In this document: one piece after another, positions 8,162 to 37,650 of the stretch
How positions within the stretch are numbered: position 1 is the first letter of the stretch
How the letters are laid out: every line of letters starts with the position of its first letter
Virus record (IMG/VR): IMGVR_UViG_3300039208_000521
Source: a virus
Reading direction: 5' to 3' (one strand)
Length of the DNA: 64,000 nt
The notes under the pieces: generated by a model
Seen by the model: the letters and a program-made list of their open reading frames with translations, nothing else
The model's database searches: none
Told to the model about the DNA's origin: nothing
Translations under genes and position numbers: made by a program

Positions 8162-10036
8162 TCATGCTGCCGCTGCCAATACTTCTGGAGAATAGGAAGC
8201 TTCCGCCCAATTAGTCCCGAAACCCTCGTCCAGTTCCATGTTAGTGCGAAGCTTGAAACCATGCTGTTCCTTGGTGAAGGTCTTACAGATCTGTGTGATT
8301 TCAGCCGAGGCCTTCTCCCGGTGTGCCGGGTCCAAAAAGTTCACCAAGGCGTCATGCACGGAGATGCCAAACTCTCCGTAACCAGTCGATCGAAGATAGT
8401 CATCGGTCTCGATCATCTTCATCTTGATGATGTCGGCATTGCCGCCTTGGCAAATGGCGTTCATGCCCTTGTAGCCATCCTTCCGGCGTTCGCGGAACCG
8501 ACGTCGTCTGCCGAGCAATGTCATCACATAGCCCCGCTCCAAAACCAATTCTTGAACACGGTCGGACATGGTCTCGGCTTCCGGGAACTCTTGGAAATAG
8601 CACCACTTATGGGCCTTGGCGTCCCCTACCGAGCACCGGAGTTTCTTAGCCAAATTCTTCACGCCGAGGCCATAGACGAGAGAGAAGTTCAGCTCTTTGC
8701 CCTTGTCTCGTTCGACGTTGAGAATATCCCCGACGATCTTATGGACGTCTGACCCCGGCTGGTTGATCCTTTCGATAAGGATTTTTGACTTCGAATAATG
8801 AGCGAATAATCTGTACTCACATTGTTCGTAGTCTTTTTCCTCCAGGATTCTGCCCTCGGGCGGGACGAACACACGCCGGAAGATTGGCCCTAGTTTCTTG
8901 TCTCGTTTGGTCACTTGCTGGAGGTTCGGATCCGAACAACTGAGCCGACCGGTCACCGTGCCGTAGTCGTCGGAAGCCAGTTGCCAAAAGTTCGGATGGA
9001 TCAGGCCGTTATGAACGTGGCGTTCCTTCAGGGGAATGATGAAGCTGTCCTCAAGGTGGCCGATCTTCCGAACGTCGTTGATCAATTCACCCTCGGGAAA
9101 TCCGGCTAGATAGTCTTTGTTGAAGCTCAGCTGACCGTTCGGGAAACGGCTCGAAGGTTTGGTTCGCTCAGGCACAGGAATGATGTCACTGTTCCACATC
9201 TCCAGGATCTTGGCTTCCCTCTCGGTCTTGGAGAGGCTCGGTGGAAGTTCGTCCGACTTCCCCTTAGTAGCGATCGACGCAATGTAGGGGCCAACTTCGG
9301 AAGGTGCTTTTGGATTGATCCCGCCAATCTTGTCGACGGCTTCCTTGCGCATGACCTTGACGCGAGAATGAAGCCGGTCGAGTTCGTCCTCTTGGATCGG
9401 GAAGCCTCGAAGCCGGGAACGATGAAGCACCGGTATCAGACCGCATTCGATATTCCAGACACGCCGAAGCTCTTGTTTGTCCAGCTCCTTTTGTTGCCAG
9501 TCCCAGAGCTGGAGTGTTGAGGTTCCATCGCCCTCGGCATACTCAACAGCCATAGGGTCTTCGCCCGACAGCTTATAGAAATTGGCCATCTGTTCACGGG
9601 TAGCCTTGCCGCCGAAACGCTCGGCCAGATACTCATACATTTGTTCGGCTTTTTTCGCCTGAACCTTAGCCCGAGCGCAGCATGCTTCGAGATTGTATTT
9701 CTTATTGTTTTCATCGATCAGGGGATCATTGAGCCCGGTGTCTTCGATCGCTCCGTTGATGGTGATACCGTCTTTGTGACTCATCCAGAGATCAAAAGCG
9801 GCGTTGTGCATCACAACTCGAAGATCTGATCGACAAAGAGTCCGGCGGATGAAATCAATAACCGGTCCCGGCTCCAGGTTACCCCCGCCTTCATGCCGGA
9901 TTGGATAATACTTGCTCTCTTCGGGGCGCATGCCCCAGGTGATGACGTAGCCGATGGGATAATCTTTATGGATGTCGAGACCCGTGGTCTCCGTGTCGTA
10001 GGCGATGGTGTTGACCGTGCTGAGATCCGGAAACAT
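8162..10036 (-). CDS. polA: family A DNA polymerase with 3'-5' exonuclease domain
   Basis: Exo I YDTETTG; TVTGRLSCSDPNLQQ; motif A DYEQCEYRLFAH; motif B KELNFSLVYG; motif C VHDA. Confidence 0.95.
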   Translation of the reverse strand: MFPDLSTVNTIAYDTETTGLDIHKDYPIGYVITWGMRPEESKYYPIRHEGGGNLEPGPVIDFIRRTLCRSDLRVVMHNAAFDLWMSHKDGITINGAIEDTGLNDPLIDENNKKYNLEACCARAKVQAKKAEQMYEYLAERFGGKATREQMANFYKLSGEDPMAVEYAEGDGTSTLQLWDWQQKELDKQELRRVWNIECGLIPVLHRSRLRGFPIQEDELDRLHSRVKVMRKEAVDKIGGINPKAPSEVGPYIASIATKGKSDELPPSLSKTEREAKILEMWNSDIIPVPERTKPSSRFPNGQLSFNKDYLAGFPEGELINDVRKIGHLEDSFIIPLKERHVHNGLIHPNFWQLASDDYGTVTGRLSCSDPNLQQVTKRDKKLGPIFRRVFVPPEGRILEEKDYEQCEYRLFAHYSKSKILIERINQPGSDVHKIVGDILNVERDKGKELNFSLVYGLGVKNLAKKLRCSVGDAKAHKWCYFQEFPEAETMSDRVQELVLERGYVMTLLGRRRRFRERRKDGYKGMNAICQGGNADIIKMKMIETDDYLRSTGYGEFGISVHDALVNFLDPAHREKASAEITQICKTFTKEQHGFKLRTNMELDEGFGTNWAEASYSPEVLAAAA

Positions 10037-12347: not shown

Positions 12348-12785
12348 TTAACAGAATGAATAAGACCAAAGATTGGGGCGAACCCCTTCGGGCGCATCGT
12401 CCCACATGTCCAAGTGAAGATACCGGCTGGCATGCTCATCGGTCTGATGAACACCCATACCGATCACGTCGAGATGATGAGCCACCTTCTGTAGCTCATG
12501 GGCATGGGGCCCGTAAACCTTCACGTCGACGGCCTCGGCACTGACATGGGAACCCGTCGTCCGACCTCCGGGTAAAATCTGTTGGTGCTGCGGTGTCCGG
12601 TAGCCGGAAGAAATAATCATCGGCCGGTTGTAACAAAGCCGAACCGCCAGAAGCCAGTTCATGAACGCTGGAACGATAACTAAGGAACCATCCCGGCTAT
12701 CCGCCAGCTCATTGGGCAAGAACCAAGGCGCCCAATGCCAATCATTTTCAGGCACATCAGACCAATGAGCATAGGCTACAATCAA
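12348..12785 (-). CDS. peptidase M15A-family endolysin
   Basis: ISSGYRT..H, SHVSAEAVD, YLHLD zinc-peptidase motifs. Confidence 0.85.
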   Translation of the reverse strand: MIVAYAHWSDVPENDWHWAPWFLPNELADSRDGSLVIVPAFMNWLLAVRLCYNRPMIISSGYRTPQHQQILPGGRTTGSHVSAEAVDVKVYGPHAHELQKVAHHLDVIGMGVHQTDEHASRYLHLDMWDDAPEGVRPNLWSYSFC

Positions 12786-12979
12786 ATCGGTTGCTCCTGG
12801 GTTTTCATTCTCTGCCGTTCGGTCCAGTCTTTCTCTTTTTCTTTCAGGCTCTCAGCATTGTTGTTGAACCGAGCCACCAATTCATCGTCAGTGATCTTAC
12901 CTTGACGCCATAGCTCGATCAGTTCGGCACCGACAGCTGCAATTTGAACGACAGCCATAGCCGTGGTTGCAATAGTCAC
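12782..12979 (-). CDS. lysis-cassette accessory protein
   Basis: 65 aa with hydrophobic N-terminus, 4-nt overlaps. Confidence 0.45.
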   Translation of the reverse strand: MTIATTAMAVVQIAAVGAELIELWRQGKITDDELVARFNNNAESLKEKEKDWTERQRMKTQEQPI

Positions 12980-13293
12980 CTCGCTTCTCCCCGCTCGGCT
13001 AGGATCACAGCTAAGAGCGCTGCTTCCAGCGTGCCGAGATCAACACCCGAGGCAGCCGTGAAATCACTCGTGCAAACCGGGTTCAAGATCGGCAACGCCG
13101 TATTGATCGCCTGAACCTCGGCGTCTGTTGCAATGCCGAAGTCGTCGCGGTCATTGATCTTGCTGAAGATGGAGTTCCATCCCTCACAGACGATCAGTAA
13201 ACGCTGACCCGGAGAGATGGGTTCACCCCCACCAAGACCATAGGAACAAGCAGCAATGCCAAGAAGGAGGAACGCGGTGAAGATGTGTCTCAT
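12976..13293 (-). CDS. lipoprotein, possible o-spanin
   Basis: Signal peptide with lipobox IAAC. Confidence 0.6.
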   Translation of the reverse strand: MRHIFTAFLLLGIAACSYGLGGGEPISPGQRLLIVCEGWNSIFSKINDRDDFGIATDAEVQAINTALPILNPVCTSDFTAASGVDLGTLEAALLAVILAERGEAR

Positions 13294-13718
13294 CGGTGCC
13301 TCTGCAAGAGTTCAAGCTGCCGGCTAAGCGCTGACTCATCTTTTTCGAGTTGCATGAGAAGGGCTCGGGTATCTTGACTGCCCTCGCCACTGTCGATCCG
13401 AGACCGGACATCTAGGATCTGGCGGTTAACGTCTCGGTGCTCTTGACCTATGCGATCGATGCGCTCTTGTTTATCGGCCGCTAAGAGCTGGTCAAGCTGC
13501 CTCTTCAGCTCTTTTATGTTGTCATTGGTCCCGGTGATTTCTTCCTCAATCGGGACGATCCGAGCTTCAAGCTCCTCGACCGTGACGTAAGGAAGCCAAC
13601 CACTTATCGCTGAAACCGCTGCAACCGTAATGACCACAGCACCCATGATGGCACTCCATCTATGGAGCATTTTCCAGGCATAAGGATGCGCTTCTACTGT
13701 AGAATTGTCCACCGACAT
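13290..13718 (-). CDS. membrane-anchored coiled-coil protein, possible i-spanin
   Basis: One TM segment followed by a long heptad-rich region. Confidence 0.5.
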   Translation of the reverse strand: MSVDNSTVEAHPYAWKMLHRWSAIMGAVVITVAAVSAISGWLPYVTVEELEARIVPIEEEITGTNDNIKELKRQLDQLLAADKQERIDRIGQEHRDVNRQILDVRSRIDSGEGSQDTRALLMQLEKDESALSRQLELLQRHR

Positions 13719-13727
13719 TGCACGACC

Positions 13728-13952
13728 CTACTCCTCGATAGGTTTGTTTCGAGGTGCAAAGTACACCGTGACCCATCCGACCAGGGCACCGCCGCCCGCG
13801 ACCAGGAGGACGTTCAAGGCCTCTCTTAGGCTCGTGACTTGGTCCGGCGCAAGCTCGGTACCGGACAGAATGGACATGAGTATGGGGATGAGTGCGACCA
13901 GAAAGCCCGAGACCGCCCCACCGATCCCCTTGCTTTGAGTTTCCCGTTGCAT
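13728..13952 (-). CDS. putative holin
   Basis: 74 aa, two TM segments, charged C-terminus, first gene of the lysis cassette. Confidence 0.6.
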   Translation of the reverse strand: MQRETQSKGIGGAVSGFLVALIPILMSILSGTELAPDQVTSLREALNVLLVAGGGALVGWVTVYFAPRNKPIEE

Positions 13953-14336
13953 GACATTTCCCGGAATGTTCGTGTGTTAGAACCGTTAACGGAATGAGCG
14001 GCTAGTGCTGCGGTGTCACTTGCGGGTCTGTCTTTTGCGACTTCAAGGCATTGCAGCACCAACCACACAGACCATACGTGTTATCCCCTACACAAGAAAA
14101 TAAAAAATCAACCGGATGACCCAGAGGATGACATACAGTCCCACTGCCGTGAGCAATAGCCCCCACATACATCCCCTGGGCACCTCTAAGCCGTCATCGT
14201 GCATTGGAGAACACGTCCGGTATTTCACATGAATTACTTGGGTGTTGTCAAGCTGTTGTAATGGCGGCAAAATTTCCGCATACGCGTGCAAAGTGAAGAT
14301 CCGTTTTCAAATAGGGATCATTATTGTATACTAGAC

Positions 14337-14380
14337 TTGAAATTTCTTCTTGACATCAACCCCTATTAAGTCCTATCAAG
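14337..14380 (+). promoter_or_regulatory. sigma70-type phage promoter
   Basis: TTGAAATTTCTTC-TTGACA(14350-14355) with CCTAT-N5-CCTAT in the spacer. Confidence 0.65.
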
Positions 14381-14393
14381 GTCTCAAGAACAA

Positions 14394-14711
14394 ATGCACG
14401 GAGACGGATTGATGGAACTCTTAACCTTATTCCTCGGCGGCGGGCTGGTATGGATCGTTATATGGGTCCTTTATGTCCTGCTACAGACCATACTCTACGC
14501 TTTTTTAACATGCACCACGGGTTTTTCCGGTTTGTATATCGGATCCTGTGTCGACAGTTTCGACGTGTTTTACGTCGGCGACATCACCATGACATTCAGC
14601 GGCCTTGTTGCCTTCGGTTTGTTGGTTGCGACCTTTCAATTCGGCAGCCGATTTTTCCGTGAGGCGTCGGAAGCCTTTCCTCGGATCGTTAGGCCCTTTG
14701 GTGCTCGTTGA
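14394..14711 (+). CDS. stand-alone membrane protein (moron-like)
   Basis: Two hydrophobic segments; only + strand gene in a - strand region; own promoter and CACGGAGAC leader (start probably 14412). Confidence 0.6.
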   Translation: MHGDGLMELLTLFLGGGLVWIVIWVLYVLLQTILYAFLTCTTGFSGLYIGSCVDSFDVFYVGDITMTFSGLVAFGLLVATFQFGSRFFREASEAFPRIVRPFGAR

Positions 14712-17375: not shown

Positions 17376-17612
17376 TTATGTGTCCTTTATGTGCTTTGCA
17401 AATCCGCCGGGGCCAAGCATCCCGTCGTGATATTTAAACCCATGTAGATCGTAGTTATCCTTCACCGCTTGTTGGTCCAATGCATGTTCCTTGACCGCTT
17501 TTCCAACGTCCGGTTCCCATCCATCGGGTCGTCCGGGATGGTACGCCTGCGATGACAGCATTCCTCCTTGGTGTAGTTCCTGGAAAATACTCTCACCGTC
17601 GTCCAGCATCAT
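17376..17612 (-). CDS. small acidic protein (ML-motif family)
   Basis: Starts MMLDD, overlapping the relaxase stop; GML twice. Confidence 0.5.
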   Translation of the reverse strand: MMLDDGESIFQELHQGGMLSSQAYHPGRPDGWEPDVGKAVKEHALDQQAVKDNYDLHGFKYHDGMLGPGGFAKHIKDT

Positions 17613-18565
17613 TGACCGATACTCCAACGATCACCGTTGACCTTTCGCCAGATGCCATCAAACGCCCTTTCTTTAACATCAGAAAGCGTCGCAATTCTGA
17701 ACGCAGGAGCAACAGGTTTATCCTTCACCCATGAACTCACTAATTTCATGCGATCTTCGGAACGCCTTTCATCCGCCCCATCAAGGATCACATAAAGAAG
17801 GACAGGTTTTCCCCAATTAAAACGACGGGTTTGCTGCACGAAAAGGGCGCTGTAATTGATGAACTTTTTCAGGATGATTTGCGGGGCTCTATTCGTCCTT
17901 TCCAACTCTATATAGAATGTGAAATCCAGACCCAATTTTTTCGCTCGCGTGTGTGCGATTAAATCAGCCCGTAATTCATTGTCCGTATTATAGAGTTCCG
18001 TGGTCGCGACCCGGTGCTTCCCTTCTATCTCTGTCGTAACGAAGTCGGGAACCGTGTCCAGGATCTCGTAGCTCGGTGACCGGCGCGCAGCCATCGATAA
18101 TCCGAGGATGATATCCACAATGCCGAGGTGATGGGGCATCTGAGAATGATTCAATACCTTCCCCCTCCAGCTACGGGTTAGGAGATACGTGGGGTCCACT
18201 ACAACCCTATCGAGTATACACCTCTCTGCTCCCGCTGTCGTTAGGGAATAGATCGGTTTCGATCCACCGGAGAACACGGAGTCCGGCTTAGTCTGTCTGC
18301 CGGACCATACGAACCAGGAGACCAGCCGGCGTTCCCGTAGAGCGGAGAGATAGCGCTGCACATTCCGCTCGGATTGGCTCATGTAGGTCATGAGTGTCTC
18401 GACCGAAGCAAAGCGGAGAACGGCAAGGGCCTCAAGAGTCTGCCGTAAACGTGGCGTGACCGTATCGGGCAAGCGCTCGGAAGCCGGAAGCTTGCCAAAA
18501 CGACGTCCTGATAACTGTCGGTCGAGGTGTCGATCCGCTCGACAAAATAATTCCTGAATATCCAC
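17609..18565 (-). CDS. replication-relaxation (Replic_Relax-like) protein
   Basis: N-terminal wHTH (LAVLRFASVETL...RYLSALRERRLV), YSLTTAG, HHLGIVDI, AD...FYIELERT, PVLLYV; adjacent to the VirD4-like ATPase. Confidence 0.8.
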   Translation of the reverse strand: MDIQELFCRADRHLDRQLSGRRFGKLPASERLPDTVTPRLRQTLEALAVLRFASVETLMTYMSQSERNVQRYLSALRERRLVSWFVWSGRQTKPDSVFSGGSKPIYSLTTAGAERCILDRVVVDPTYLLTRSWRGKVLNHSQMPHHLGIVDIILGLSMAARRSPSYEILDTVPDFVTTEIEGKHRVATTELYNTDNELRADLIAHTRAKKLGLDFTFYIELERTNRAPQIILKKFINYSALFVQQTRRFNWGKPVLLYVILDGADERRSEDRMKLVSSWVKDKPVAPAFRIATLSDVKERAFDGIWRKVNGDRWSIGQ

Positions 18566-21111: not shown

Positions 21112-21200
21112 ATCCTATTAAATCCTATGTTTTTCGTCAAGGATAAACTTCAAGTTATGCAGGCAAAAAGAATCCCCGGAATCCGAGGACACCGGGGACA
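21112..21200 (-). promoter_or_regulatory. intrinsic terminator followed by phage promoter
   Basis: CCCCGG...CCGGGG hairpin plus T-run, then TTGAAGTTTATCC-TTGACG-N17-TAGGAT. Confidence 0.7.
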
Positions 21201-22257: not shown

Positions 22258-22464
22258 TCAACGAACCCCTAAGATACGAAGGATTGGGTGCTTGTACTTT
22301 TTGAGGCAAACGCCCGTCAAGAACGAGGCGATGGCAATCACGATGATGTCGAGGAAAGGATGCTGAATGTAAGAGAGCGCCGATGCTTTTGACATATCCA
22401 TAACGGATAAGATCGCCAGAAGAATAACGATGATCCACGCACGCTGTAACGTTGGTCCTGTCAT
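22258..22464 (-). CDS. small membrane protein
   Basis: Two hydrophobic segments; CACGGAGACAGACA-ATG leader. Confidence 0.6.
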   Translation of the reverse strand: MTGPTLQRAWIIVILLAILSVMDMSKASALSYIQHPFLDIIVIAIASFLTGVCLKKYKHPILRILGVR

Positions 22465-22559: not shown

Positions 22560-22650
22560 ACCCTATTAAATCCTATTTTATTCGTCAAGGAGAAATTTCG
22601 TTTTTTAGGGCAAAAAGAAAACCCGGCGCAATCGCCACCGGGCTCTCTGC
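22560..22650 (-). promoter_or_regulatory. terminator plus phage promoter
   Basis: CCCGGTGGCGATTGCGCCGGG hairpin plus T-run, then GAAATTTCTCC-TTGACG-N17-TAGGGT. Confidence 0.7.
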
Positions 22651-22763
22651 ATTGCTCCCTCGGTTTCCCGAGTCATCCGGCATTGCCGGGATAGTGATAC
22701 AAGTACCTTGCTGTTAATAAGCACCAATGGCACCGAAACAACCCTATCACATCGATTAGGAAT

Positions 22764-22880
22764 AAAAAAGAGCCGGGGAACGGATCCCCGGCCTTGAAGT
22801 CGATGCCTCTTAGGCATTTCACGGATAACAGACAGACGACAATGCTCCTCCGAACCTTGCCACCCGCAAGTAACGCCTAA
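22764..22880 (-). ncRNA. candidate trans-acting antisense sRNA
   Basis: TTGACA at 22909-22904 upstream; 8-bp terminator hairpin (22772-22792) with T-run downstream; no sense ORF; complementary to 14015-14049 and to early-gene leaders. Confidence 0.55.
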
Positions 22881-22928
22881 GAAATATAGGGGATCATAGG
22901 ATTTGTCAAGTTCGTCAATCCCTTGTGT

Positions 22929-23193
22929 CTATTCCGGCGCTGAGTCCACGATATATAGTTTAGGGCAAAGACTTTCCCTAATATCTTCAAGAAGTTCTCG
23001 ATAGCCGGTAGCCGATGTGAATTCCGGTGACCGACCCACAATCATACAATAAGCCTCGCAAAAAGCATCTTCGGCCGCGTCCCGTTCGTTGATCAGTTGG
23101 AGTTCGGCGCGTTCATGTTCATTTCTCTCTCTTATACGTTCATTTGATATGCGTCTCACGGGATCTGATATAAGCAGATTCTCAAGGTCATTC
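22929..23193 (-). CDS. hypothetical coiled-coil protein
   Basis: Likely start MNDLENL within the track ORF 22929-23270. Confidence 0.5.
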
Positions 23194-23928: not shown

Positions 23929-24433
23929 TCATTCGAAAATGGTCATCTATCTCACAGGTGTCCGTGTCGCCGTGGCACCGAACCTTGTAGACATCACAAC
24001 ATTTCATCTCATCCCGGAACAACTCGACACTGTCGACCCGTTTGTTGCAGATAGCGCAAATGATCACCGGACACCGGGGATCGTCATTACGGACATGGGC
24101 GAAAGGGTTCACGTTATTCATATAGGGGTCCACGGGGATATCATCTTGAATAACCATATCAGCGCCAATTCCACAAAGCTCTTCAGCCCTAAGTGGTTCG
24201 GCTTTCCGCAACTGTTCCAAAGATCTCCAAGCATCTTTGAATGATCGATAGTGCCCGGTAGCCAGAAGCCTGCGGGCAACATTGGCGCGTTTCTTGTCGA
24301 TCACTTTGTATCGATTGTAGTCCTCCAAATCTTGAATGAGTTTCTTTTGCCAAGGCTGCAAGGCGAATGAGGCTCCTAGGGATGAGACGAACTCGCCTAG
24401 GCCCCATTTCTCAATAACCTTCGGTCTATCCAT
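23864..24433 (-). CDS. hypothetical protein with terminase-like short motifs and Cys-rich C-terminus
   Basis: Start MDRPKV overlaps the helicase stop; FALQPWQ and GADMVIQDD motifs. Confidence 0.5.
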   Translation of the reverse strand: MDRPKVIEKWGLGEFVSSLGASFALQPWQKKLIQDLEDYNRYKVIDKKRANVARRLLATGHYRSFKDAWRSLEQLRKAEPLRAEELCGIGADMVIQDDIPVDPYMNNVNPFAHVRNDDPRCPVIICAICNKRVDSVELFRDEMKCCDVYKVRCHGDTDTCEIDDHFRMNAGPHEIKEGRAFATKRIENA

Positions 24434-25967
24434 GCGGACATCCGATGATTGAGGTGAAGAGCTGGATATCTTCTTTTCCTCGGGTTGCTGCCGTGTAGTT
24501 CCATCGTTTGACTTCGTCGATGAGCTCATGATTGCCTCTGTCTTGCTTGTAGATTTGCCGGACCTGGACAGCCACTTTCGGCCATTCAGAGCCTTGCGAT
24601 TTATGGGCCGTGATTGCGTAGGCAAAATCCAGTGTCATACTGGAGCCGACTTTTCTAAATGCTCTTTTTCGGCCTTGATTCATTTCCCAGAATGGCAGGG
24701 TGCGAACCATCCACACTCTTTGGTTCGGATCTCCGTCGACGATTACAGGCATGAGGTAGGCGTCGCTATCGTCAAGCTTAACCGGGGAACCATGCGTTTC
24801 GAGGATCATATTTTTCTGAATGGTCCGGTACATGGTGACCAATTCCAGGCGACCTTTCGGGCCATTTAACCTTCCACGTCGCCCTGTATAAACTGCGCCC
24901 GATCGTCCTTGGCTTGCCTCATATTGACCGGTTAGTCGCGCCTCGTTCTTTATAAAATAGTCTCGGTTCCTGTCGTCAATGTTGACGGTCCTTTCGGCCC
25001 TCGTTTGCGTGACCGTGATCAAGGGCTCTTTCTCTTGAGGCTCCATGCCGTGCAAGCCAAGGGTCCGACGACATTCTTCATTCATCCAGGCTACCCCGTT
25101 GTTGGTGTAGGTGATGAATTGATATCCTTCGACACAGAATGCCCGGAACTCAGCAACATCTATCGGTTTATTGAACCGATCCGGGATCTTGCCGGCATCC
25201 AGCTCATAAATGATATCCAGGAGGTAACTGTTGCCACTGACCCGGTGAATGGTGCTCAAGGTCACCTCATCGTCGCAGCCGAGATATTTGCAAGTATCGA
25301 CAGAATTAACCGGCGGCAATTGTCCTGGGTCTCCAACATAGATCACGGAGTCGAACATGCCATGCAGCTCGTCAGCCGAATCCAAAGGACACATCGAGAG
25401 TTCATCCACGACAATCACCGTCTTACGGTCAATGCCTTCCTTTTTCAGTTCCTCCTCGGTCTTGAGCACGGTACCCGATACCCGGTCGCCGCGGCCCTTT
25501 TTGATCATATCAATGATAAAATATCTTCGTGAATTGGTTCGTTTGCGCCGATCTTCCGGGTCATGAGAATCGTCAAACACACCCACATCATCCAATATCT
25601 TGGATATTTTATTCGGATCGTCTGTCCTCAAAATCTTATCTGCCTGGTCCGTTGAAAACGTGAAATCACCCACACGAATCACAATGCCGGTCTTATAGAG
25701 CAACCGGTTGATCGTCCGGCAATGCTGTTTGGGGTAACCGACCTCGCCCATCCGGTTCACGGCTTTATTGGTATAAGCGCAACAGATCACCTTGTAGCCG
25801 GCATCCAGTAGCCTATGGACCAGCGCCAAGCCCGTCGTGGTTTTGCCGGTTCCGGCTTTACCGAGCAGCTTAAAGGCGCCACCGCCGTTGCGCACCATAT
25901 GAAGGGCGCGGTCGACGGCTTCTTCCTGGACCGGATCAAGGATTAATGTGTTCAGGAGGTCAGACAT
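24426..25967 (-). CDS. SF1B helicase (RecD/Dda-like)
   Basis: GKAGTGKT, VVDELSM, YVGDPGQLPPV, AYAITAHKSQGSEW. Confidence 0.9.
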   Translation of the reverse strand: MSDLLNTLILDPVQEEAVDRALHMVRNGGGAFKLLGKAGTGKTTTGLALVHRLLDAGYKVICCAYTNKAVNRMGEVGYPKQHCRTINRLLYKTGIVIRVGDFTFSTDQADKILRTDDPNKISKILDDVGVFDDSHDPEDRRKRTNSRRYFIIDMIKKGRGDRVSGTVLKTEEELKKEGIDRKTVIVVDELSMCPLDSADELHGMFDSVIYVGDPGQLPPVNSVDTCKYLGCDDEVTLSTIHRVSGNSYLLDIIYELDAGKIPDRFNKPIDVAEFRAFCVEGYQFITYTNNGVAWMNEECRRTLGLHGMEPQEKEPLITVTQTRAERTVNIDDRNRDYFIKNEARLTGQYEASQGRSGAVYTGRRGRLNGPKGRLELVTMYRTIQKNMILETHGSPVKLDDSDAYLMPVIVDGDPNQRVWMVRTLPFWEMNQGRKRAFRKVGSSMTLDFAYAITAHKSQGSEWPKVAVQVRQIYKQDRGNHELIDEVKRWNYTAATRGKEDIQLFTSIIGCPHG

Positions 25968-26257
25968 AGAATTCCACTTCTCCGGCACGCATCATCTCGT
26001 CGTACACTTTGATGGTTTGATAGTTCTTGGCGACAAAGCTATGTGGATGTGCCCCGCACCAAATTTCAAAAGCCGTCGTGCCCCAAGGGAACGGACATTT
26101 CTTCAAGAAACTCTTTGATATGAACGTGACTTCAACACCTATATCGGCGATGAAAGCGCCCTCCGGCGCCGTATTTCGCCAAAGTCTGTCTTTAGCTTGA
26201 AACTCTAAAAGCGGTTGTTCGGCTCGGGTCATGAGCTCGCTGTATTGCTCTCTATTT

Positions 26258-27714: not shown

Positions 27715-27815
27715 ATCCTATTAAGGTGTGTAGGGTGTGTCAAGGATAAAGTTCAATAGGTAAAGCCAAAAGAAAACCCGGCCGATTCGCGGGGGAGTTT
27801 TCGGCCGGGTTTTCA
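27715..27815 (-). promoter_or_regulatory. terminator plus phage promoter
   Basis: AAAACCCGGCCGA...TCGGCCGGGTTTT hairpin, then TTGAACTTTATCC-TTGACA-N17-TAGGAT. Confidence 0.75.
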
Positions 27816-30039: not shown

Positions 30040-30145
30040 AATCCTATCAAACCCTGTTCAGGTGTCAAGGATAAATTTCAATAATTTTTGAACAAAAAGA
30101 AGCCCGGAAGAGCGTCGCTTCAGCTTCCGGGCTTCTTCTCGTCGC
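30040..30145 (-). promoter_or_regulatory. terminator plus phage promoter
   Basis: AAGCCCGGAAG...CTTCCGGGCTT hairpin plus T-run, then TTGAAATTTATCC-TTGACA-N16-TAGGAT. Confidence 0.75.
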
Positions 30146-30521: not shown

Positions 30522-32828
30522 TTAGAACTCATCCATTTCGTCTGTCCGCTCCATGCTGCCGTGCATGTCGTCATCTTCAATCGGGGTGCCGTCGATCACG
30601 GCGTCTTGATACCGCTCATTCAAGGCTTCTCTTGCTTCTTCAAGCTCCGGCAACAAAATTGCCCTATACCGATCATATCGACCACCAATCTGCTTTGTTG
30701 CCTGCTTTGGATCGATACCCGAACATTTCCACAACATGGCATGAAACGCAGGCGAGGGTATGCCTCTTTCGCCTTTATGCTGGTCCCTAAACGCCGCTTC
30801 AAGGGCCGTCTTTCCGATACTGGTCGGCCAAACCGCTTTCCCGTTTTTCGGCCTGACTTGGTCCATATGATCTTCCGGCACCTGAATGCGGCCGGCGTCG
30901 ATGCATTTGGCCCACCATTGCGCAACTGGATCCATACTCATCAAGATCTGTTTGCGACCAGCTGCCGACTGATAGCAGGACCGGAGCAAATCAACGCTAT
31001 ATTCATAATGCATGAGATAATCTAAGAGCTTGCCTGGTCCATCCCCATCAATCTCTTCGTAGATGGCCCTAAAGTGCTCCAACTTCTCCTCATCAGTCAT
31101 GTGATCCGTTGGATTAACCACATCAACCACGGTGTAACGTTGGTCATCGGCATCCCGGTTCAACACATGGATCTTGTTCGATGCCAAGACGACCCGGAGA
31201 TAATTTCGGCCGGATTTCGCATGACCCCACTTATGGTCCATGAAAAAATCTTTATCGGTGATCAAGGTCTTAAGGACATTGGCGGCTACCGTGCTTGAGG
31301 CAAAATCCGCCTCATTTGCAAACATCAAAAGCGCATACTGCAAATTTGAATTATATCGGTTGGTGATCTGTCCAGCCCCATTCATCTCGCGAACGTGGCG
31401 CATGCCAATAACGCATTTCATCATCTCGACAAGGGTGTTCTTACCCGACCGCTGACCCGACCTTAACATCACGGCTGTCCCCGGCTTTTGCATCGGGTTC
31501 TGCACAATGTCGGCAAGCCACGCCATCAACCAGTGCATCATCTCCTCATTATAGTCGCAAATGAACCGCTCCATGTGACCGAGCCATTTATCGATTGATC
31601 CCTTTGAGTTCGGTTTTGCCTGCCAACCTCGCCACAAGTTCAGCTTGCCGTCGACGACTTCGGCTTCCCCCGGCATGAAATCCGTCTTTCGGTATGTCCT
31701 TCTATCCGGGTGTTCAAACCAATATTTCGATTTCGGCACGAAGATATCTTTCTTCCCGGCCGGTAGCTTGATCCGGTCATTGCAGGTCAGCATGTGAAAT
31801 TCTTGGGGTGGCATGGTTTCGAAATCTGGAAGAGAAAGATCATTGACCACATCAAAGTCGATCACGCATACCTTGCCGAAATAGACGGCTACCGCGTATC
31901 GAGCGTTGAAATCCTCAAAGACAGCCGCTCTGGCATCCATAAAGAGTTTTCGGAATTCATAGACCAGACGAGGATAAGCCGTGATCTCAGCAAGCCTTGG
32001 ACCGCCGGCTATGCGTTGTTTGCCCTCTGCCCTTTTATAGGTGTCACGAACGGCGCGAATGACTTTCTTTCGGTCATCACCCTCATCCACATAAGAGAGA
32101 AAGCAATTCATCCAGTGAACAGCCTCGTCTTCTGTCCACTTGGCCAAATAGAACATGCCGGCATAAGCCATCGATAGATCGTGCTTGCAACCGTCGAACC
32201 AACCATGCTTTGCCGCCATGACCGTGAATGCAATTTTTCGGACAGCTCGGCGTAGTTCATAACTGTCGACGGCAGCCGGTAGCTTAGTTGGTACCTTGCC
32301 GTCTTTCCATTCGATTAACTCGCCTGATGTGTGAATTGTTCCCGGCATAACGGTTTGACCGCCATCAGCCCGGTATTCAATGATGCAAGAACGCTCTTTA
32401 GGATTTTCTTCACAAGACGGTATCTTTTCCGTGTCCATATAACCTTTGGCTTTTGGATCAATGGCACGCTGTTTTTGGGTTGTATCGGTCGAATCTGAGA
32501 TCACAAATACGTGATGTGAGCATTTTTTGCCTTTTCTACCAAAAATCCATCCTCCGTGTGGCAGATGGGACACAGCTAGGTTTGCGATATCAGGGTGGTC
32601 TAGATCTATGTCGACGAGTTTATAGCGCTCAGATAGAACGACACCGACACCTAGGTCTTCATTTTTCCAACGATTATAATCACTTGAGTATGAAGGATCG
32701 GAAAATCCTTCTTCGTCCGTAACTTTAGTATTTCGCTTTATAGGTAAGGGCATTAGCCCTAGGTTTTTGAGCAGGTCGACCGTTTTAAGGACTTCTGGCG
32801 AAGATTTAGAGGCCTTTGAGGTCATCAT
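30522..32828 (-). CDS. bifunctional primase-polymerase / helicase (Prim-Pol plus DUF5906/D5-like ATPase)
   Basis: N-terminal LVDIDLD...HHVF...IEYRADGGQTVMPG; C-terminal SGQRSGKNT, MFANEAD, LIT...N..RVVLASN. Confidence 0.9.
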   Translation of the reverse strand: MMTSKASKSSPEVLKTVDLLKNLGLMPLPIKRNTKVTDEEGFSDPSYSSDYNRWKNEDLGVGVVLSERYKLVDIDLDHPDIANLAVSHLPHGGWIFGRKGKKCSHHVFVISDSTDTTQKQRAIDPKAKGYMDTEKIPSCEENPKERSCIIEYRADGGQTVMPGTIHTSGELIEWKDGKVPTKLPAAVDSYELRRAVRKIAFTVMAAKHGWFDGCKHDLSMAYAGMFYLAKWTEDEAVHWMNCFLSYVDEGDDRKKVIRAVRDTYKRAEGKQRIAGGPRLAEITAYPRLVYEFRKLFMDARAAVFEDFNARYAVAVYFGKVCVIDFDVVNDLSLPDFETMPPQEFHMLTCNDRIKLPAGKKDIFVPKSKYWFEHPDRRTYRKTDFMPGEAEVVDGKLNLWRGWQAKPNSKGSIDKWLGHMERFICDYNEEMMHWLMAWLADIVQNPMQKPGTAVMLRSGQRSGKNTLVEMMKCVIGMRHVREMNGAGQITNRYNSNLQYALLMFANEADFASSTVAANVLKTLITDKDFFMDHKWGHAKSGRNYLRVVLASNKIHVLNRDADDQRYTVVDVVNPTDHMTDEEKLEHFRAIYEEIDGDGPGKLLDYLMHYEYSVDLLRSCYQSAAGRKQILMSMDPVAQWWAKCIDAGRIQVPEDHMDQVRPKNGKAVWPTSIGKTALEAAFRDQHKGERGIPSPAFHAMLWKCSGIDPKQATKQIGGRYDRYRAILLPELEEAREALNERYQDAVIDGTPIEDDDMHGSMERTDEMDEF

Positions 32829-32899: not shown

Positions 32900-33330
32900 T
32901 CGGGGTCTCGGTAGCCGGTAGCCGGGTGTGTACACACCCAAAAAGGGGGGTGTATAGGCCCTAAAAGAGGTGTGTAGGTGTGTATTTTAGCCCAAAATCC
33001 CTATCTTGTCTAATAGGATTGTGTCTTACGCTAATGAGACCTATAGGATGTGTCAAGGAGAAAGTTACCGATACACAATGGGGAGTGTGTACGAATACAC
33101 AATAGGGGATGTTCACCATAACCCTTAGTACCGGCTTGATAAAACAAGCGTACACACCGAACACAGTGGGGGGTTAAAGTCTTTTATAGAGGAATTTGTG
33201 ATTTAGAAACCAGCCGGACACATCAATTTTAAGATATAAAAGATACCTACATATTGTATGTGTTCGGTGTGTATGGGGTTTGACAAGGATAATATTTGAT
33301 AGTCGATTTTTGGGTCAAATGATAAATTTA
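32900..33330. repeat. palindromes and GTGTGTA iteron-like repeats, candidate replication origin
   Basis: 16-bp palindrome GGGTGTGTACACACCC (32924-32939); 15-bp inverted repeat at 33151-33165 and 33259-33273; several GTGTGTA copies. Confidence 0.6.
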
Positions 33331-33924: not shown

Positions 33925-36590
33925 AAACCCCGGACAATGCCGGGGCCCTAGATACGGTGTCACCTCCTTTGTTTGGCTAAGCTTGCCCTTATGGGTTTGC
34001 CATTCATTGTCACTTCGATTTCTGGGTCTAGGTCGTCTCCTTCTTCTATCTTTTGTTCAAGCCATTCGATTTGCAGTGTCGTTCTCCTGGTCCATAGGCG
34101 CCACATATGGAGAATTATGCCGAATAATGTGAAGAGAACGATTGCTCCTAGGAGGTTGACGGTATGTGCTTCCATTATCGTGGTGTCCATACGTAGATGT
34201 GTAGGTGATCGTTTGGGCTTGAGCTTGGTCTGTACGTTGTAGGCTTAATACGAATGCCCCTCATTTCATCCCGCATTCTCACCCATTGTGTTGCTCTTGA
34301 TACTTCGGATGGTTGTGCGTCTTTAGGAAGTGCCCATGCCGCATATGAATTGCCGTTTTCACATTCACCCCATCCCGACATGAAAGTATCACGAGCTAAA
34401 ACCATTTTGGTGTGGGTTATTTTTTGTTCGTCTGTTCTGTCGTCTTTGATTCGAATTGCCATTTGTCTGTTCCCGTGTCTTGGTTTTTCTTTATGTATTA
34501 ATCATACTTACTCTATATTTTATGTCAAGGATAAATTTCAACAAAAATTACCTATAATACATAAAATTTTATCTTGTATCATTTTGAGACTCATTTTGAG
34601 AATAAAAAGAAATCCCGGACAATGCCGAGGCCAATCTAACGGGAAAGGGTGTGTGGATTACGTTTTAGCTACGTCAAAAGTCATTACGACACATGAGTCT
34701 GTTTTCCATCCATATCCGACTAGGTCATGATATCGAACAAAGTCACGGCTGAATTCATCTGAGGTAAGGAACCTAAAATGTCCGTGATGCTCTTCCATGT
34801 CCTCAATGAACCTGTCTAGGATAGCTTCGTCATCGTCGTTTAGTGACGTTCTGTCGTCGTATGCGAAGAATGTTAGGAGATGTTCTGGTAGAAGGTAGCA
34901 CGCCATTTCCATAGGTCACACTCCAAAAAGAGACGAGATGACAGACCACAAACTCTTTGAGCCGCAGACGAGATCACATTCACGCCGAACTACCTCAATG
35001 ACCCTATTGGAATGCTTGGGCTTGTTCATGATCCGGTCTAAGTTGTTTGCTAGTTCTGTCATCTGTCTAGTTCCGTGTTGTCTTTTGCTTATTCCCTTAT
35101 ATTAAGGACTGGGTTGTGTATGTCAAGGATAAATTTCAACAATTATCATATTCTTCTGAATTAGCTGCTTCCCACACAAGATAAATGTGTGCAATGTCCA
35201 TATCACTGAAATCTGTTTCACTATCAAAATACACATTCTCACAAGTTTCTTGTTTTTCTTTATCCGTTGCTGGCCTGTTTTTGTATTTACCGTTTTCATC
35301 AAGAGCAACAATCCTGAACTCAACGCCTATATGGTCAAGGATGTAACGGCATGCGTCTTCGCAGTCTCCTGTGGTTGTGCAGTCATGAAGATCTTCTTCG
35401 AATTCCGTTCCTTGGATGGATTGGCCATCAATCGTGCAAACAGATGCTCTTGGTTCATGTGGGCATATTTCTATGATTAGTTGTGCTGATGACATTTTCT
35501 TAGCTCCTTACCTCGATCACAAGACCCTTGATCTCAAAGATAACCGATCCATTGACGCCATTTGTTTTCTTGCTTGCCAGAGCCGATAGGTAGCTCATCA
35601 GGAAGGAGAGTTTCTTTTCTGCCAGTTCCCTTGCGTTGATGGTCATTTGTCTATTCCCGTGTTGTCGTTTTATTTATTGTAATTGAAAAATATCCATAGA
35701 TCATCTGACACAGTTTCGTAGGATTTTACTATTCCAACTTTATATAGATTGTAGGCATATTCTTTTGATTTATTCAGTTTAATTTTGATCGTTTCTGATA
35801 GGGTTGCCATCTGTCTGTCTCCGTGTTGTCTTTCTATTTGTACACACCGTACACATCCCCTATCATAATGTAAAGGATAAATTTCAACAAAATGATCAAT
35901 ATTCTATGTGTGTTCTGTTTTGTTTTAAAATCGTTGAAAGCACGAATCAGAAAACCGGCCTTTCAGCCGGTTCCCTAATTCCGATTGTTGACTTGGGGGT
36001 TGGGGCCTTAGGCCCCTTTCCCTTGTGCGTATTTGAAAACCTCGGTCAGTGACGGTGAGTGAAATCTGGTTACGCCGTTCTTGTCTGCTGCATATGCCCA
36101 AAAAATCGTCTCTGTGGAAATCATGTAGATGTCTAGGTCGTTTACGGTTGCTATCGGCCTGTTGGTCATCTGATTATTTCCTTGTTTTGAGGTTATGTCT
36201 TTTTATAGTCGTTCTTGGATTATATGTAAAGGATAAATTTCAACAAAATGATCAATATTCTATGTGTGTTCTGTTTTGTGTCAGTACGTGTCAGTAGGTG
36301 TTCACTTTATGTTCTTAATTCCCTAAAGCACCAATCAGAAAACCGGCCTTTCAGCCGGTTCCCGAACTCTGATTATTGGTTTCCTTATCGTGTGATCGCT
36401 CTCCATAGAATGTGGTTCATTGTAATTTGTTGAACTGCCATTTTCGTGCTGTAGGTGATGTTTCCGTTGTTCCTGCAAAGTGCGAACCAAGCGATCAATC
36501 GGCTATTCATTTTCTGTCTCCGTGTTCTGTTGGTATACACACAGTACACATCCCCTATCATAGTGTAAAGGATAAATTTCAACAAATATG
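33925..36590 (-). repeat. array of promoter-microgene-terminator cassettes
   Basis: Five copies of TTGAAATTTATCC-TT(G/T)ACA; exact 56-bp (35868-35923 = 36224-36279) and 31-bp (35945-35975 = 36333-36363) repeats; ORFs 33960-34190, 34175-34462, 34658-34912, 34916-35062, 35136-35495, 35500-35646, 35670-35810, 36008-36169, 36385-36510. Confidence 0.85.
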
Positions 36591-37650
36591 AATTTATCTA
36601 TATGGGTATGACGTTAGTTATTCTTGAAAGCACGAATCAGTATTAAGTGTTTTCATACACTTAGTTTTTTAAAAAGGTTGTTCTGCGGCCGAAAAATTTT
36701 CACCCTGTCAATATATAAAATTTGGAAAAATGTCGAATTTTTTCCTTGACAGTCTACCGGCCCCTCTAAGGCCCTTCCCTGTAAACCGGCTTCCTATCCA
36801 CGGTGCCTGGTTACCGGTGTCCTATGGTCAGATACGGGCTTTCTAGGTACGGTTTCCGGTAACCAAGTCCATGCAACATGTATTTAGGGGGTTATATGTA
36901 CATAGTGTGTATTCCCACACTAGCAGTATCTAGGATATCGACCTAATTGTAAAGGATAATATTCAAGAATATAAGCCTAGATACTAATATCCTAAGTACC
37001 TGATTTATAAGGACACCTTCCTACAAAGTTCGATAACGTGCATTATGACAAATACCCTGTGACTATTTACCTATTCTGGCCAGTAAAAATATTGATATTC
37101 CTACATTTTTATTTTAGGAATATTGTCCAGGTGAAATTTCTCCTTGACACCTATTGCGCCAAGCGCCATACTGCTAGTGTGGGAATGCGTACCAATGGTT
37201 GCCGGGAACCGGTTACCGAATTAGGGCCCCAAGTTGCCTGTAGTAATGAATAATAATCCCTACCCCATTATTGGGGGGTCTATTTAGAATGTTCTATCCC
37301 CCCTGAAATAATACGCCCTATACGTAAATTAAGCATGGCTGGTTACTGATATATGGGGTGGGGTATACTATGGGTATAGTATGTATAATACATATATCAT
37401 TATACTAATGTATTATATGTATATTATGTTGAATATTATACTTGACATATGATAGGAGATGATAGGATAATGCATAGAGATAAAGGAGATGAATGATGTA
37501 AGTCGGTAACCCGCTATGGATAAGGTTATACCCACCTTCCAACTTTTAATTCACGGGTCCTAAATTAAATGAACGTCCGGGCTAGCCGCATAGAGAAAAT
37601 TTTCGGGGGAATCAGGATTCGAAAAATTTTCTACGCGCGTACACGATTGG
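36590..37650. other. AT-rich non-coding divergence point between leftward and rightward transcription
   Basis: No credible ORF; very AT-rich tract at 37381-37440; + strand TTGACA at 37144 and 37442; repeated GGTTACC/GGTAACC. Confidence 0.65.

Follow-up and report, generated by a model that had tools for sequence, protein, structure and literature searches.

The timing of host lysis sets the burst size and the fitness of a phage, and its known controls comprise late promoters, antiterminators, antiholins and the properties of individual holin alleles. In this study we characterized a candidate small RNA (sRNA) gene, at 22909-22764 on the minus strand, and its putative target in the leader of the lysis cassette of an uncultivated phage, represented by a stretch of 64,000 nucleotides (nt) from IMG/VR record IMGVR_UViG_3300039208_000521. 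This whole stretch is referred to as the window, its phage as W, and the relatives of W carry labels from L001 to L016. Several described antisense systems are close to such a pair. The C4-type RNAs (c4 of P1/P7 and CI of P4) act on another phage transcript through at least two short separated blocks, and the block sequences set specificity classes; in temperate elements, both c4 and CI arise from the transcript of their own immunity operon, with maturation by RNase P (a transfer RNA-like fold) as a mark of the family, and they act inside that operon to control antirepressor or replication genes. In the IstR-1/tisB system, a constitutive sRNA pairs far upstream of the start codon of the mRNA for a small membrane-damaging protein, so that leaky transcripts are silenced until mRNA output rises, and this control works by a ribosome standby site together with ribonuclease (RNase) III cleavage. 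In CopA/CopT of plasmid R1 and in OxyS/fhlA the target is a hairpin loop, and a multi-helix junction or a multi-site contact eases the topological limit of a closed loop; CopA is cis-encoded and fully complementary, and OxyS forms two loop-loop kisses.

The c4 antisense RNA of P1/P7 has been summarized in a review (PMC12197685). The only lysis-linked phage RNA listed in that 2025 review is PAK_P4as15 of Pseudomonas phage PAK_P4, a cis-antisense RNA that lies opposite the endolysin gene and was proposed to delay lysis (PMC12197685). Full-text literature searches turned up no phage sRNA that is encoded in trans and acts on lysis genes, and an earlier description of such an RNA on a lysis-cassette leader was likewise not found. 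Here we report that a partnership of this kind is well supported in W and nine related phages by the compensatory evolution of both loci.

Results

A promoter-to-terminator unit matches the lysis leader in three blocks

The first-pass annotation of the window, made from the sequence by a model, had described the sRNA unit as a minus-strand stretch with a TTGACA box, no sense open reading frame (ORF) and a terminator hairpin followed by a T-run, and each of these features was found. The promoter (22881-22909, minus strand) consists of the -35 box TTGACA (22909-22904), a 17-nt spacer with two CCTAT repeats and the -10 box TATTTC (22886-22881). The motif TTGACA-N3-CCTAT-N4-CCCTATATT occurs a single time in the window and is exact in W, L001, L002 and L009. 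Transcription is predicted to start at about 22875, which would give a candidate RNA of about 105-112 nt composed, in order, of block 1, hairpin 1, block 2, hairpin 2, block 3, the terminator and a U-tail. All of these elements lie on the minus strand. Block 1 (22874-22862; DNA GTTACTTGCGGGT, RNA GUUACUUGCGGGU) is the 5'-terminal pairing segment, block 2 (22837-22830; DNA GTCTGTCT, RNA GUCUGUCU) stands between hairpin 1 (22838-22861; GGCAA...UUGUC) and hairpin 2 (22803-22817; AUGCCU-AAG-AGGCAU), and block 3 (22802-22791; DNA CGACTTCAAGGC, RNA CGACUUCAAGGC) stands between hairpin 2 and the terminator. The intrinsic terminator with its U-tail (22764-22793; GGCCGGGGAUCCGUUCCCCGGCU) forms a hairpin of 9 pairs, 7 of them G-C, at 22793-22771 and continues as a T-run to 22764. 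Mechanically called ORFs overlap the unit (22605-22817, 70 amino acids (aa)), but they extend across the terminator, and the corresponding site carries no called gene in any relative.

The proposed target lies in the leader of the lysis cassette, on the same strand. In the minimum free energy (MFE) fold, the leader forms a stem-loop at 14000-14064 with a 12-base-pair (bp) closing stem (14064-14053/14011-14000) and a 41-nt loop (14052-14012), and the loop is closed by GGUUGGUGCUGC/GCAGCACUAGCC. The target itself spans 14015-14049, and along the mRNA from 5' to 3' it comprises the counterparts of block 3 (14049-14038), block 2 (14033-14026) and block 1 (14027-14015). The earlier claim that it sits within a stem upstream of the holin ATG was borne out; its distance from the ATG at 13952, the start of a 74-aa gene, is 63-97 nt.

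The three blocks do recur in the same order on the plus strand at 14015-14049, with a single T/C difference, and the three-block complementarity to the leader RNA that had been deduced from this was reproduced by cofolding. In the predicted complex, block 1 pairs with loop positions 14015-14027 over 13 bp, including the one G-U pair already anticipated, block 2 pairs with AGACAGAC at 14026-14033 and block 3 pairs with GCCUUGAAGUCG at 14038-14049, for a total of about 27-33 bp. Cofolding also returned the two intervening hairpins that had been proposed. The predicted binding energy of the cognate pair in W was -26.6 kcal/mol, compared to -5.4 +/- 2.2 kcal/mol for shuffled loops. The U-tail of the terminator and a short A-rich segment of the target, GCAAAA, which stays unpaired between helices 2 and 3, are in line with the use of an RNA chaperone (Hfq or ProQ), and they are suggestive only.

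We assessed how far this match exceeds chance within the window. With gap-open costs of -8 or -10, a spliced local alignment of the two loci scored above 200 of 200 dinucleotide shuffles (z of about 4.5), and with laxer or stricter gap costs it no longer beat all of them. A naive seed-chaining statistic reached the same score in 5.7% of shuffles. This statistic was too permissive, and the "extra copies" that it placed at 48.1 kilobases (kb) and 60.6 kb were rejected as chance chains in coding sequence. It was also noted that the window is rich in further repeats, mostly belonging to an early-promoter family. Taken on its own, the window places the three-block match only moderately above chance, which is suggestive and not secure; it is the comparative evidence from relatives that places the match far above chance.

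Both loci are conserved in nine relatives

Relatives were found among ENA, Logan and NCBI metagenome-assembled genome (MAG) contigs by protein searches with two genes that lie between the loci, and the homologues of these two query proteins were 42-63% identical. Together with W, nine distinct relatives carrying both regions (L001, L002, L003, L004, L005, L008, L009, L011 and L015) form the ten-phage set used below, and the gene order is identical across the nine. Two more relatives (P0014 and P0021) were recorded for the same gene order only, and the L016 contig, which lacks the sRNA side, was left out of the pair analyses. Searches of IMG/VR, JGI metagenomes and GTDB genomes, made with proteins, protein alignments and DNA patterns, returned no relatives; three JGI matches to the promoter pattern were unrelated sequences. 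The first-pass annotation had raised the loss of one locus without the other as a possible contradiction, and no such case was seen wherever a contig spans both regions.

In all nine relatives, a promoter-to-terminator unit of 101-124 nt in which no gene was called occupies the intergenic gap that follows the helicase module, and TTGAC-N17-TA(T/G)(T/A)T is present at the syntenic place in each. The terminator is conserved in all relatives. On the raw MAFFT alignment RNAalifold recovered this stem and no other, as the sequences of the 5' half diverge too far to be aligned. Hairpins 1 and 2 were therefore read from per-sequence folds: a hairpin of differing sequence occupies the hairpin 1 site in all relatives, and a 4-7-bp hairpin of other sequence occupies the hairpin 2 site in every one. 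The leader shows a similar pattern, with a closing stem of 7-19 bp whose sequence differs per lineage and which encloses a 36-49-nt loop. The distance from loop to start codon was 55-61 nt in the eight of eight phages measured. Upstream of the leader, the lysis promoter consensus TTGACA-N16-TGTG(A/G)AAT was found in 10 of 10 phages, and once in the window. The promoters of both units are thus conserved, and they point in the same direction as the lysis genes.

The sRNA and the loop change together

Covariation between the two loci in related phages had been proposed as a check, and it was found as compensatory change across the ten phages. When each sRNA was cofolded with its own loop, blocks 1-3 paired with contiguous parts of the loop and both sRNA hairpins stayed folded. 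Block 1 is lineage-specific in sequence (GUUACUUGCGGGU in W; UGUCAUUC in L002, L009 and L011; GUCUUCCA in L003; GUGAUU in L004), yet in 7 of the 9 pairs analyzed it retains complementarity to its own loop, and the tenth phage, L015, also pairs at its 5' end. For block 2, the sRNA and loop sequences are GUCUGUCU/AGACAGAC in W, GGCUGUCU/AGACAGCC in L002, L003, L005 and L009, GGCUGUGU/GCACAGCC in L011, and GUCUCUGUGAC/GUCACAGAGAC in L008 and L015. Block 3 is the most conserved segment of the sRNA, with GACUUCAAGGC/GCCUUGAAGUC in W and L002, GACUCUGAGGC/GCCUCGGAGUC in L011 and CCGAUUUCAAGGC/GCCUUGAGAUCGG in L001. Compensatory changes in this block were found in L001, L004, L008, L011 and L015, L003 and L005 lack one base pair through a deletion in both partners, and two transitions in the target of L009 are absorbed as G-U pairs. 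In most phages the MFE fold of the free sRNA leaves block 3 unpaired; being exposed as well as the most conserved, this block is probably the seed of contact.

The energies agree with this pattern. The mean predicted binding energy was -21.5 kcal/mol for cognate pairs and -11.6 kcal/mol for non-cognate pairs, and none of 300,000 random re-pairings of the 10 sRNAs with the 10 loops reached the summed energy of the true pairing. Shuffled loops, which the first-pass annotation had singled out as the control that might do equally well, bound much more weakly, with cognate pairs 3.2-9.8 standard deviations below them (z of -3.2 to -9.8). The sRNAs of W, L001, L004 and L008 bind their own loops far better than those of other lineages, and at least four groups of specificity can be told apart in the energy matrix. 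When the locus of about 20 kb was searched on both strands for the best Watson-Crick spliced complement of the loop, this complement fell inside the sRNA unit of about 110 nt in 7 of 10 phages. The units of L009 and L011 were located by the promoter motif, without use of complementarity, and they still pair at -27.0 and -22.5 kcal/mol.

The RNA-RNA partnership of the sRNA and the lysis leader loop is, on these comparative grounds, well supported. As for the generic class of trans-encoded sRNAs, the unit appears on sequence to be independent, with conserved -35 and -10 boxes and a terminator in 10 phages and no coding content, and its partial complementarity to a distant target has been kept by compensatory evolution.

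The lysis cassette and its promoter region

The lysis-cassette promoter (14222-14251, minus strand) has the -35 box TTGACA (14251-14246), an 18-nt spacer and the -10 box TGAAAT (14227-14222). Between it and the leader stem lies a small ORF of 38 aa (14088-14204, minus strand) with an acidic N-terminus, RG and one transmembrane segment, and a weak terminator-like hairpin (14124-14112, minus strand) is located within it. Comparable small hydrophobic ORFs are present in L001, L003, L005 and L016. The 38-aa ORF is presumably a real gene, and its product may be an antiholin or other lysis regulator. A 69-aa ORF at this place reads through the stem-loop in L008 and L015. A conserved ORF through the leader stem-loop had been considered on account of a conserved UAA in GUUAAC and of the ORFs called in these two relatives, and it was rejected for W, where a UGA inside the loop is in frame.

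The spacer of 135 nt between the small ORF and the holin gene is untranslated and C/A-rich, and no intrinsic terminator was found after the target in the leader. The C/A-rich stretch extends to the holin ribosome-binding site (AACAUUCC(G/A)GGAG) in W and relatives. A conserved (G/C)UAAC motif was also noted about 20-25 nt after the leader stem in the relatives and at 13975-13990 (minus strand) in the window (alignment columns 117-123).

The first gene after the leader (13728-13952, minus strand) encodes the 74-aa protein, which has two transmembrane segments and is holin-like. Its nearest Atlas structural cluster is Holin_SPP1 (TM 0.74), which is a lead only, and in L008 and L015 the same first-lysis-gene position is occupied by a GTA_holin_3TM gene. 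The cassette continues on the minus strand with a 142-aa spanin-like protein (13290-13718) and a Peptidase_M15_3 endolysin (12348-12785), with two further small ORFs within 12348-13718. The order of the lysis-cassette genes is the same in relatives.

Upstream of the leader stem, the relatives often carry a strong promoter-proximal terminator, a small hydrophobic ORF, or both. Strong intrinsic terminators stand 40-70 nt downstream of the lysis promoter in L001 (13960-13995), L002 (14512-14545), L009 (14170-14205) and L011 (10070-10105), and the window counterpart at 14100-14124 (minus strand) is weak. This layout of promoter and promoter-proximal terminator in several relatives recalls the pR'-tR' arrangement of lambda, and its sequence features would imply attenuation or antitermination of lysis transcription. 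Between the minus-strand genes and the lysis promoter, the window also holds a plus-strand gene (14394-14711) for a multi-pass membrane protein of about 100 aa with its own promoter of the early family, and an opposite-strand gene of similar size is found at that place in all relatives.

Genome setting

The full genome of W, a phage from an aquatic metagenome, is approximately 75 kb, of which the window is a part. Its layout is of the virulent type, and neither a repressor, an antirepressor nor an integrase was found among the window genes scanned. Megablast and blastn searches against 50,697 phage records returned no close isolate phage, and the DNA polymerase of W is only 31% identical to that of the nearest isolate. 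The sRNA unit is a separate promoter-to-terminator unit amid replication genes: a primase (30522-32828) belongs to the same minus-strand block, a Dda-like helicase (24426-25988, minus strand) precedes the unit, and a Replic_Relax protein (17609-18565, minus strand) comes after it. A family-A DNA polymerase (8162-10036) lies downstream with the lysis cassette. No transfer RNA (tRNA) or transfer-messenger RNA genes were found in the window, and ARAGORN reported no tRNA-like gene. Hints of the host are limited to one relative binned in a Geminicoccaceae MAG and to a holin of the gene transfer agent (GTA) type in two other relatives.

Directly after the sRNA terminator, a second structured non-coding stretch (22610-22760, minus strand) contains two small hairpins and its own terminator (22637-22624), and its best resemblance in Rfam, to anti-hemB, is weak and below threshold (16 bits). 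What follows the sRNA in the relatives is an early promoter and a structured leader of another kind (e.g., GGCTTTGACCTAGC in L001 and L004).

The center of the sRNA resembles an antisense of early-gene leaders

A central segment of the sRNA (22820-22844, minus strand), which overlaps block 2, is antisense to a ribosome-binding leader shared by early genes, CACGGAGACAGACAAUG. When this segment was compared with both strands of the window, 8 of its 11 best trans matches were translation-initiation regions, and regions of this type include those upstream of the starts at 22464, 27685 and 12269 (minus strand). The motif CUGUCU-N1-5-CCGUG recurs in the sRNAs of most relatives. As judged from the sequences, the antisense match to the early-gene leader is clear in W and weaker in relatives.

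The window also carries an early-promoter family, AAATTTATCC-TTGAC(A/G)-N17-TAGGAT, with ATAGG repeats in the spacer, and these promoters often stand right after a terminator. Members were located on the minus strand at 21112-21150, 22560-22598, 27715-27753, 30040-30078, 33028-33066 and 34500-34538, and on the plus strand at 14338-14380. The sRNA promoter carries the pentamer repeats of this family in reverse orientation (CCTAT-N4-CCCTAT), and repeats in opposite orientations hint at a shared DNA-binding regulator. Among the other repeats of the window, a direct pair of 59 nt (85% identity) lies inside small genes at 28760-28818/28988-29046, and exact repeats of 56 nt and 51 nt bound promoter-microgene cassettes at 35800-36600.

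Discussion

A proposed brake on holin synthesis

We consider that the unit is probably the gene of a trans-acting, base-pairing sRNA of about 105-112 nt that pairs with the lysis-leader loop, with repression or thresholding of holin synthesis as the favored outcome. In this model, both RNAs would be made from conserved sigma-70-like promoters, and the target would be presented as a loop of about 40 nt held open by a long stem in the lysis mRNA, between the ORF for the small membrane peptide and the holin-like gene. Block 3 would start the contact, after which the three blocks would pair with contiguous stretches of the loop and the two sRNA hairpins would protrude as junction arms, allowing more than one helical turn inside a topologically closed loop. 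The lysis cassette would be transcribed, at least leakily, well before lysis is wanted. Such early leakage is likely because the two promoters resemble those used by host sigma-70 and have consensus -35 boxes, and the promoter-proximal terminators in several relatives point to the same. The constitutive sRNA would bind the leader and lower holin synthesis, either by blocking a ribosome standby or loading region, by creating a substrate for RNase III or RNase E, or through Rho. One of these routes would be needed because the target is too distant and consistent sequestration of the ribosome-binding site was not seen. Only once the output of lysis mRNA exceeds the sRNA pool would lysis proteins appear, as with a threshold or timer. 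For the direction of the effect taken by itself, the balance tips modestly toward repression or thresholding of the lysis genes.

Several observations weigh against this model or limit it. The target, at about 60-100 nt from the start codon, is too far away to occlude the ribosome-binding site directly, leader folding gave no consistent sequestration of the holin ribosome-binding site, and the sign and timing of the regulation are purely inferred. The 74-aa protein of W had no Pfam or PHROG match, such that "holin" is a positional and topological call. On the pairing side, L001 and L008 show blocks 2 and 3 only in the MFE complex, the third block of L015 is weak (5 bp, at the 5' end), and the sRNAs cross-react within one clade (L002, L009, L005, L011 and L003), so that specificity lies between lineages and not between phages. 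The comparison of G-U with A-C mismatches between strands gave 18 versus 13, and the summed energies were -193.8 kcal/mol for sense versus -177.3 kcal/mol for antisense; because of this outcome, the polarity of the RNA rests on the orientation of the promoter and terminator. A search of sequencing runs matched window DNA in two DNA runs, both from one aquatic-metagenome study and probably the origin of the sequence, and in 0 RNA runs.

Alternative explanations

An unlikely but serious alternative keeps the same partnership with the opposite sign, such that sRNA binding would activate the lysis genes and act as a trigger instead of a brake. This could occur by masking a Rho-loading (rut) region in the spacer of 135 nt, by a processing cut that stabilizes the holin mRNA, or by remodeling of the leader. 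The position of the target far upstream of the ribosome-binding site, as in leader-binding activators, and the length of the untranslated C/A-rich spacer are in keeping with activation, and the terminators near the lysis promoter in relatives make lysis transcription look attenuated and perhaps in need of positive inputs. However, there is no consistently sequestered ribosome-binding site in the free leader for binding to release, and the sRNA promoter looks constitutive with its consensus -35 box, firing from the start of infection, which suits a brake over a late trigger. We regard as rather improbable the idea that the main job of the sRNA is instead the shut-off of early genes through their shared leader, with the lysis loop serving as a high-affinity mimic, a late sponge or one more target. 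The antisense character of the sRNA center in W, its best matches at translation-initiation regions and the CUGUCU-N1-5-CCGUG motif kept by most relatives' sRNAs all point in this direction, as do GUCUCUGUG of L008, a gap-free complement (one G-U) of CACGGAGAC, and the leader-like CACGG/CACAGAGAC in the loops of L001 and L008. Yet block 2 of L011 tracks its lysis loop (GGCUGUGU/GCACAGCC) rather than the early-gene leader, in which AGACAG is retained; no early-gene leader was among the 12 best matches in L002 and L005; a 1-5-nt bulge breaks the complement in most phages; nothing in the early-gene leaders corresponds to block 3 or to the lineage-specific block 1; and a relic of common origin could explain the shared motif. 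We see early-gene control, or a sponge role of the loop, as a real possibility of second rank. A combined scheme, which we hold to be doubtful, would make the sRNA a master clock whose center silences the early genes with the CACGGAGACAG leader and whose outer blocks silence the holin mRNA, until the lysis-leader loop, as a high-affinity mimic of the early leader, titrates the sRNA once late transcription increases; the block classes would then let co-infecting relatives of the same class delay each other's lysis. If true, early shut-off and the onset of lysis would depend on a single RNA pool and so be coupled, and virulent phages would have an RNA-based counterpart of lysis inhibition or heteroimmunity.

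The short lineage-specific blocks, together with the four or more specificity groups of the energy matrix, also recall the heteroimmunity classes of C4, and an immunity RNA of the C4/CI type could in principle cause premature termination of the nascent leader, giving lineage-specific immunity or exclusion among co-infecting relatives. This is very unlikely, as the window and the seven relatives (the latter at gathering score) lack an Rfam C4 match, no intrinsic terminator follows the target, the genome is of the virulent type and without a repressor, antirepressor or integrase among the genes scanned, and the target is 8.8 kb off in another operon. It is less credible still that there is no functional RNA pair at all and that the match reflects chance, relics of an inverted duplication at the DNA level, or sites for protein binding or recombination. 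The modest, scoring-dependent significance within a repeat-rich window would allow such an origin, and the strand test gives no decisive polarity. Against it, both loci are kept in ten phages with changed and still complementary sequences, the stems covary, and a conserved promoter and terminator mark the limits of the unit; at 42-63% protein identity, the two copies left by a mere duplication would have decayed independently of each other. The brake on holin synthesis remains the reading that we favor.

Significance

The comparative support for this pair is unusually strong for an uncultivated lineage. In the proposed RNA design, three helices are accommodated in one closed loop and hairpins of the regulator itself form the arms of the junction, and the energies predict at least four natural orthogonal specificity classes. 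The sRNA would also provide a new RNA family usable for the annotation of metagenomic phages.

Comparison with known systems

We compared both loci with the known RNA families. At gathering score, Rfam gave 0 matches in the whole window and 0 in seven relatives, and at E<=10 the two loci returned sub-threshold generic matches only (mmgR, anti-hemB and mir-3151). The match to mmgR/alpha-r8 (RF00519, "suhB") covered hairpin 2, the single strand and the terminator with 24.9 bits (E 0.005, cmscan), and with a gathering score of 41 the sRNA is not a member; it shares a general layout with alpha-proteobacterial trans-sRNAs, and the match rests on the generic hairpin-plus-terminator shape. The sRNA is a new phage small-RNA family, absent from Rfam.

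The first-pass annotation had likened the sRNA to P1 C4 and P4 CI, and this holds for the idea of a phage trans-antisense RNA with several short blocks but not for family membership, as the Rfam C4 model (RF01695) matched nothing in 22600-23100 when the cutoff was relaxed to E<=10, and nothing in seven relatives at gathering score. Short, separated complementary blocks whose sequences set specificity classes are common to both. The present sRNA differs from the C4 family in having its own promoter and terminator, in residing in a virulent-type genome, and in having its target 8.8 kb away in the lysis leader. PAK_P4as15 differs in being about 550 nt long, fully complementary by position and without comparative support, whereas the present RNA is trans-encoded, about 105 nt long, partially complementary and co-varying in ten phages. 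As in CopA/CopT and OxyS/fhlA, the target lies in a hairpin loop and the predicted complex is a multi-helix junction; the difference is that here a linear RNA with a free 5' end would form three helices in one large loop, and the junction arms would be two hairpins of that same RNA.

By analogy, type I toxin-antitoxin pairs, IstR-1/tisB among them, may serve as the favored working model for the present pair. The head of the lysis cassette encodes a small membrane protein (74 aa, two transmembrane segments) that in W matches no holin family. The single-stranded target 55-61 nt upstream of the start is compatible with such a mechanism and not diagnostic of it, and the ribosome-binding site is not consistently structured. 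IstR-1 and tisB form one continuous duplex for the control of a chromosomal toxin, whereas the pair described here would use three blocks within a stem-closed loop for the control of a phage lysis cassette.

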